Below, piece after piece: positions 5,725 through 6,254 of a DNA stretch of 64,000 bases. Numbering within the stretch: position 1 is the stretch's first letter; each line of letters starts with the position of its first letter. Source of the stretch: Escherichia coli (lineage in GTDB: Bacteria > Pseudomonadota > Gammaproteobacteria > Enterobacterales > Enterobacteriaceae); the NCBI RefSeq assembly GCF_044647545.1, contig NZ_CP172818.1. The stretch is one strand, 5' to 3'. The position numbers and the translations under genes were made by a program. The notes under the pieces were generated by a model that saw only the letters and a program-made list of their open reading frames with translations, ran no database searches and had not been told where the DNA came from.

Positions 5725-5820
5725 GTGTTTGTAACAAACTATCAGCTACAAAAATATGCTCAATTTGTGACATCAGTAACAAAACGCGTTTTGTTATGTG
5801 GATTGCTTGTTTTTTGATCT

Positions 5821-5844
5821 GGTATAACAGGTATAAAGGTATAC
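5821..5844 (+). promoter_or_regulatory. putative NanR operator: three GGTATA repeats at 9-bp spacing upstream of nanXY
   Basis: ggtataacaggtataaaggtatac; NanR is known to bind GGTATA repeats; sits about 410 bp upstream of the nanX start. Confidence 0.6.
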
Positions 5845-6254
5845 AGAAAAGCAAAGAAATACTGCAAAGGAAAACAGCTATAACGTAAGCTAAAGTAATA
5901 ACCTCTCAGTCTTTCCTCATTTGACGAAGGGAGTTTTATTCAACCTGAACGGACTACGAAAATGAGCACAATGAATAAGTCAATTTTTGAAGCAGGGTTG
6001 AACTGTGCCAGTGGTGGAATATCTGGCGAACATTGTTTTTTGTTGGTGACCCAAAACTGTAGGTGGGTATCAGTTTTATCTTTCATAGAGTGAAATATGT
6101 TAAGAAGAAATGGAGGAAAAGATTGTACTGATTAGGTATTGATAACAATCAATAGTACTGGCGTATTTGAAGACAATATAATTATTTCTGGATATTGTTG
6201 AGGCTCCCTAATATTTACTTTAAGGGCTATATTAGAATAACACAGGAAACAAAT

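Follow-up and report, generated by a model that had tools for sequence, protein, structure and literature searches.

An inverted repeat upstream of nanXY and nanCMS in Escherichia coli is very probably a pair of related sialic-acid promoter/operator modules

Why do two operons for sialic-acid use that lie some 36 kb apart carry similar DNA in front of them? The question is posed by a 64,000-nt stretch of Escherichia coli DNA (the window), which corresponds to the K-12 region at 4.50-4.54 Mb. The sequences quoted in an initial annotation of this DNA were recovered at their positions, and the inverted repeat that they form ranked first among inverted repeats when the whole window was searched for repeats without bias. 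The repeat is 77 nt long and 84% complementary, and its arms are 36,276 nt apart. When the two upstream regions were aligned pairwise, as the annotation had proposed, the Smith-Waterman score was 94, compared with 22.2 +/- 2.3 for 200 shuffles. The longest exact stretch is the 30-nt sequence TTTTTGATCTGGTATAACAGGTATAAAGGT, at 5811-5840 and 42146-42117, and GGTATANNNGGTATA is found in only two places in the 64 kb, which are the two module copies (0.06 matches are expected by chance). The description of the two regions as nearly identical was right about the existence of the repeat and too generous about its degree, with identity at 84% over the full length and 77% in the part before the GATC. 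We are highly confident that the arms are paralogous copies of a CRP-activated, NanR-repressed sialic-acid promoter/operator, one serving nanXY and the other nanCMS.

The segment 2816-42879 is colinear with K-12 MG1655 4,500,622-4,540,685 at 99.5% identity and covers both operons. The gene names that had been assigned from the sequence, nanX-nanY behind the first copy and nanC-nanM-nanS behind the second, agree with the names that RefSeq gives in identical or near-identical E. coli DNA. In this annotation, nanX encodes a 2,7-anhydro-Neu5Ac transporter and nanY a hydratase, while nanC, nanM, and nanS encode an outer-membrane channel, a mutarotase, and an O-acetyl esterase, respectively. The two operons are convergent, and the promoter copies form the outer, inverted ends of an IS-rich segment of 36 kb that contains fec, sgc, and yjh genes and is annotated in K-12 as the KpLE2 phage-like element. 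An IS4 element (insG, 4287-5712, minus strand) has inserted upstream of the nanX module, at a distance of 51 nt from its CRP-like site, and is flanked by a 12-bp target duplication, ATCTTGGTTCTG. The IS4/nanX junction recurs in 967 complete E. coli genomes, or about 85% of nanX carriers; in strain MS20659 the IS4 site upstream of the nanX module is empty.

The two ends of the segment differ in their relationship to K-12. The nanXY region (window 5000-9000) matches K-12 with 100% nucleotide identity. Relative to K-12 there are 22 nucleotide differences in nanS, 27 in nanM, and 5 in nanC, and it is ST648-type strains that these three genes match at 100%. This unequal identity suggests a mosaic history across the 36-kb segment. 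Beside nanC the sequence breaks at 42879/42880, and the genes from fimB to most of fimH are absent in this strain. The following ~665 nt (42880-43544) consist of G/C-rich scrambled sequence with long poly-G runs. At this position an ST648 genome (NZ_CP008697.1) has an IS1A, with the nanC-fimB intergenic region on one side and the fimH 3' end on the other, and the flanks match ST648 at 100% and 99.97%; the stretch looks like a corrupted or mis-assembled IS1 copy and not like biology. A second poly-G/G-rich scrambled stretch at 62456-63145 looks like an artefact of the same kind, again a corrupted IS1 copy: the references that match both of its flanks at 100% have an IS1 family transposase there, and their coverage of 60500-64000 is only 73%. 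At 20669-21436, a divergent IS1F copy reads normally.

Table 1. Features of the two module copies, their leaders, and their operons in the window.
Feature	Coordinates	Strand	Description
nanX module copy, arm 1	5764-5840	+	Repeat search, alignment, nhmmer match
CRP-like site, nanX copy	5766-5781	+	TGTGACATCAGTAACA; 9/10 consensus half-site bases
Dam GATC, nanX copy	5816-5819	+	1 nt from first operator hexamer
Predicted extended -10 TGgTATAAC, nanX copy	5820-5828	+	Read from sequence; overlaps first hexamer
NanR operator, nanX copy	5821-5843	+	GGTATAacaGGTATAaaGGTATA; three perfect GGTATA hexamers
nanX leader ORF	5962-6093	+	43 codons, unannotated; ATG aligns with that of the nanC mini-ORF
nanX	6255-7472	+	Intact, identical to K-12
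nanY	7484-8602	+	Intact, identical to K-12
nanC module copy, arm 2	42117-42193	-	Repeat search, alignment, nhmmer match
CRP-like site, nanC copy	42191-42176	-	TGTGACACGAATTGCA; 8/10 consensus half-site bases
Dam GATC, nanC copy	42141-42138	-	1 nt from first operator hexamer
Predicted extended -10 TGgTATAAC, nanC copy	42137-42129	-	Read from sequence; overlaps first hexamer
NanR operator, nanC copy	42136-42114	-	GGTATAacaGGTATAaaGGTGCA; third hexamer is degenerate GGTGCA
nanC leader mini-ORF	42006-41968	-	12 codons (MRSTNTLFYDSG), preceded by AAGGAA; read from sequence
nanC	41698-40982	-	Intact
nanM	40962-39856	-	Intact
nanS	39791-38811	-	Intact

What do the two arms contain? The two copies are built of the same parts, and these are in register (Table 1). 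The operator hexamers are separated by spacers of 3 nt and 2 nt, and each copy has at least the two direct GGTATA hexamers by which a NanR operator is recognised, together with a Dam GATC no more than 5 bp away. Measured from TATAAC, the CRP-like site is centred 49.5 nt farther upstream in nanX and nanC, and 48.5 nt in nanA. If TATAAC is the -10 hexamer, the CRP-like site would be centred at -61.5, a class I position. The TGgTATAAC would then be an extended -10, and the putative transcription start is placed with respect to it. A simple consensus scan detected no canonical sigma-70 -35/-10 pair in either module, as is expected for an activator-dependent promoter, and the promoter assignment is one that we infer. 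With a TGTGA-N6-TCACA-like site that precedes the first base of the putative -10 by 49.5 nt, the arrangement resembles lac-type class I promoters, in which CRP is centred at -61.5. It differs from them in the repressor site, which in the nan promoters is not palindromic and consists of three direct hexamers lying over the predicted -10 and start for three GntR-type dimers.

The initial annotation had placed GGTATA repeats in both copies, reading toward the operon on each side, and expected them to be close to the promoter. The orientation is correct, toward nanXY in one copy and nanCMS in the other. The repeats themselves are present in both, with three perfect hexamers in nanX and only two in nanC. 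They are promoter-proximal in the sense that they overlap the predicted -10 and are followed by a leader of ~420 nt; they do not adjoin the coding sequence. The distance from operator start to ATG is 434 nt for nanX (ATG at 6255) and 438 nt for nanC (ATG at 41698), which is unusually far, and thus both mRNAs would carry leaders of ~420 nt.

How do these features compare with what has been published for sialic-acid regulation in E. coli? Kalivoda et al. (2003 and 2013), as cited in PMC3658417, PMC8012715, and PMC7535918, described the NanR operators of nanATEK-yhcH, nanCMS (yjhATS), and nanXY (yjhBC), and activation of nanC by cAMP-CRP was reportedly found by Condemine in 2005. NanR controls three operons with this operator, namely nanATEK-yhcH, nanCMS, and yjhBC (nanXY) (PMC3658417; PMC8012715 Fig. 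1; PMC7535918). It is a GntR-type repressor, three dimers of which bind the (GGTATA)3 operator cooperatively (PMC8012715). Two hexamers already suffice for nanomolar affinity (PMC8012715), so NanR should bind tightly at nanC in spite of the degenerate third hexamer there. With Neu5Ac bound, NanR is held in a state of weak DNA binding (PMC8012715). At nanA, nanC, and yjhB, NanR binds within 5 bp of a GATC, the methylation state of which varies (PMC5155068). As a point against the present reading, one genomic SELEX study yielded the nanC/fimB site as its only NanR target (PMC5934670). Of the NanR-regulated promoters that were tested as reporters, PnanX in single copy combined the lowest background with the largest proportional activation by Neu5Ac (bioRxiv 10.1101/2024.10.23.619804); the reporter experiment proposed in the initial annotation has thus effectively been done already.

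The two copies are therefore not merely similar to parts of the E. coli sialoregulon; they are the same loci, and their operators are those aligned in PMC8012715 Fig. 1b. Their orientation, neighbouring GATC, and CRP site are as described for the published sialoregulon, and there is no difference in kind; what this strain lacks is fimB-fimH. Since the three operators, the adjacent GATC, the CRP control of nanC, and the PnanX reporter are all in the literature, they are already known. The repeat is real but ordinary: it is the known E. coli sialoregulon.

The nanC operator has a further role as O_NR, which activates fimB from a distance of around 760 bp, and NagC operators near nanC are located between O_NR and fimB (PMC3173223). 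In the window, the nanC operator is ~765 bp from the inferred fimB start, as measured from the SlyA site TTAGCATGATAA at 42702-42713, which matches the published distance. The segment common to both copies ends at the CRP site, and the nanC flank toward fimB has no homology to the nanX copy. In this strain fimB to fimH are missing, and therefore distal activation of fimB by the nanC operator would be without a target.

Together, the published and present observations lead to the following scheme, in which anatomy, homology, gene context, and distribution come from this analysis, and NanR binding, Neu5Ac induction, and the CRP dependence of nanC come from the literature. Three elements would work together in each copy: a CRP site at the class I position of about -61.5, a promoter with a weak -35 and an extended -10, and a NanR operator of direct GGTATA hexamers that spans roughly -14 to +9, with a Dam GATC abutting the operator in every copy. 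The nanX copy would drive nanXY, for the uptake and conversion of 2,7-anhydro-Neu5Ac, and the nanC copy would drive nanCMS, for the outer-membrane channel, the mutarotase, and the O-acetyl esterase. When sialic acid is absent, NanR dimers would sit cooperatively on the hexamers and occlude the -10 and start region. Neu5Ac, by binding NanR, would weaken its hold on DNA and lead to the joint induction of all operons that bear the operator, provided that cAMP-CRP is present. The module itself would descend from the nanR-nanA intergenic promoter, which is found once per genome across Enterobacterales.

What is the evidence for this descent? In the nanA promoter of K-12, the operator is identical to that of nanX, as is the flank TTGATCTGG. 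The ancestral nanR-nanA promoter shares with the two copies the operator core TCTGGTATAACAGGTATAAAGGT, the GATC, a CRP-like site at the equivalent offset, and TGnTATAAC. It lies directly after nanR and has a leader of ~45 nt, whereas the leaders of the nanC and nanX copies are ~420 nt long. The operator pattern TCTGGTATANNNGGTATANNGGT was used to scan ~100,000 species-representative genomes, and 92 loci were found; 78 Enterobacterales species have it as a single site per genome, located between nanR and nanA. A second copy of the operator appeared just once in this species-representative scan, upstream of nanC in strain E69 of Escherichia coli. This result agrees with the statement by Vimr that relatives of E. 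coli have one nan operator only, or two in one case (PMC3658417). An nhmmer profile of the nanR-nanA region from the 78 species matches 5785-5854 (E 1.7e-12) and 42197-42104 (E 3.2e-11), with no other match in the 64 kb below E = 1. These matches indicate that both copies derive from the ancestral nanA promoter, and they bear out, along with the correct gene names, the view of the initial annotation that two sialic-acid accessory operons share one regulatory cassette.

The relationship among the three copies is seen in the sequence upstream of the GATC, where identity is 77% between nanX and nanC, 54% between nanC and nanA, and 44% between nanX and nanA. On this evidence the nanC and nanX copies are each other's closest relatives, with nanC intermediate between nanA and nanX. 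As their similarity to each other exceeds that to nanA, and as they also have ~190 nt of leader in common, one was probably copied from the other as a unit of ~270 bp; any direction assigned to this copying would be inferred. Of 5,426 complete E. coli genomes, 1,151 (21%) carry the nanX module together with its leader. Nearly all of the others have a nanC-type copy, as does the great majority of genomes with or without nanXY. These counts are consistent with published prevalences of ~15% and ~93% (PMC10088187). An apparent third class, comprising genomes with a nanX-type module and no nanX, vanished once short operator-only matches were excluded.

Related sequences were also encountered in assemblies that carry other names. 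A 265-bp contig of Methylobacterium mesophilicum NBRC 15688 (L041) is 99.6% identical to 5593-5857, the K-12-type IS4/nanX junction, and the first 1100 nt of a 3317-bp contig from a MAG labelled uncultured Bacteroides (L014) are 95% identical to 41781-42879 (nanC-fimB). Both look like Escherichia DNA that has contaminated, or been mis-binned in, other assemblies. A Logan contig from ERR029046 (L104) is not E. coli, its nanT being 75% identical, and has at 2371-2423 an operator variant, GGTATAacaGGTACAcaGGTATT, ~30 nt upstream of a nanT-like gene that is followed by nanC-like and nanM-like genes. This gene order would place the channel and mutarotase genes of another enterobacterium in a nanT operon with a NanR-type site and without a long leader.

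How far does the homology between the nanX and nanC copies extend? Immediately downstream of the operator, over ~55-60 nt, 5846-5905 and 42116-42063 are unrelated between nanX and nanC. On the nanC side this stretch diverges most rapidly when E. coli is compared with E69, with 22/54 differences, compared with 1/77 in the promoter module. Homology then resumes for ~130 nt, at offsets of 60 and 49 nt from the operator: 5906-6034 (+) is homologous to 42062-41933 (-) with a score of 29 vs 12.1 +/- 1.5, which none of 300 dinucleotide shuffles reaches (z ~11). A blastn comparison of the nanX and nanC upstream regions gives 63% identity over 276 nt (E 2.6e-20). The homology thus reaches ~190 nt into the transcribed leader, and the copied unit of ~270 bp comprises the promoter, the operator, and the start of the leader. 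Upstream of the CRP site, with IS4 conceptually removed, no homology was detected (score 10 vs 11.1 +/- 1.4).

Several possible sources of the shared leader were considered and rejected. For descent from the nanA leader or coding sequence, the best match is the 15-nt CAAnCATCACTTCAG, with a score of 13 vs 10.3 +/- 1.3 that was reached by 17 of 300 shuffles; the 78-species profile, when extended to 350 nt past the operator start, has no match in the nanX or nanC leaders. For a remnant of a nanT-like gene, the tblastn match WRALFFIG/WRTLFFVG scores 20.4 bits, and 21 of 200 shuffled leaders equal this score. Nor does the leader accompany nanC orthologues elsewhere. A NanC homologue with 78% identity follows a DUF386 (PF04074) gene without a leader, and one with 63% identity follows a nanT-like gene after a gap of 122 nt, also without a leader; a homologue with 85% identity is an E. 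coli variant and has the same upstream region.

Could the resemblance between the arms have arisen in some other way than by the copying of a promoter? NanR operators might have been acquired independently at two sites through convergence of the motif, and it is true that the most conserved part is the 30-nt core, the part bound by protein, which selection alone could hold identical. However, the 77% identity runs through the non-binding spacer from the CRP site to the GATC, and the CRP site has an equal offset in both copies. Beyond the operator, the leader homology resumes at a near-identical distance, and the total leader lengths agree to within a few nucleotides. Convergence is thus highly improbable. 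The inverted copies could also be ends or scars of a mobile element or island around the 36-kb fec/sgc/yjh segment, in which case their regulatory appearance would be incidental. The arms are indeed inverted and flank the mosaic, IS-rich KpLE2 region, and nanXY is accessory, as its count among complete genomes shows. This reading is barely credible, given that genomes without nanX show the nanC-type copy only, that at most three places per genome match a 688-nt nanX query, and that the nanC copy is kept in the great majority of genomes whether nanXY is present or not. Moreover, the module itself lacks target-site duplications and terminal repeats, the sole target duplication being that of the adjacent IS4; the arms are oriented as outer promoters that read into the segment, and published regulation accounts for them fully.

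Paralogous copying of the sialic-acid promoter/operator can be held together with an additional proposal, that the common leader is a functional post-transcriptional control element of both operons. The homology is significant, and it includes a ribosome-binding-like, GGA-containing purine-rich motif followed by ATGAG, with motif and ATG aligned between the two leaders. The 12-codon nanC mini-ORF keeps its frame, length, and stop in the divergent strain E69, and the nanX upstream region of MS20659 has 1 change in its first 271 nt compared with 8 in its last 220 nt (Fisher p 0.013). Against this, the nanC block common to both leaders diverges between E. coli and E69 like the rest of the leader (18/131 vs 36/237, p 0.76), and most codon changes in the mini-ORF are non-synonymous. 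The 43-codon nanX ORF is frameshifted by a 1-nt deletion in MS20659, and therefore the long ORF is not conserved. Neither leader has a credible match at E <= 1 to the Rfam 15 covariance models, the consensus fold from three sequences is weak (-10.7 kcal/mol, with a covariation term of -0.43), and the K-12 annotation has no small protein at the leader ORFs. On balance, a functional leader element is unlikely. We read the leader homology as shared descent, and evidence of function was not found. It is conceivable, if quite doubtful, that the copied ~270-bp unit with its leader, ribosome-binding-like motif, and ORF start gave nanXY and nanCMS a post-transcriptional control that nanATEK lacks; such control could be, for example, translation-coupled or Rho-dependent attenuation.

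The NanR sialoregulon, with (GGTATA)3 operators at nanA, nanC, and yjhB/nanX, is textbook-level knowledge and is in use for biosensors. The present analysis confirms that the signature of a real regulon can be recognised from raw sequence, and it does not extend the biology of sialic-acid regulation. Its additions are evolutionary and modest: the nanC and nanX copies have in common a unit of ~270 bp with part of the leader in it, and the nanC copy is intermediate between nanA and nanX. Among species representatives, extra operator copies are essentially confined to Escherichia coli. The nanXY and nanCMS promoters are a tidy case of the growth of a regulon through promoter copying.
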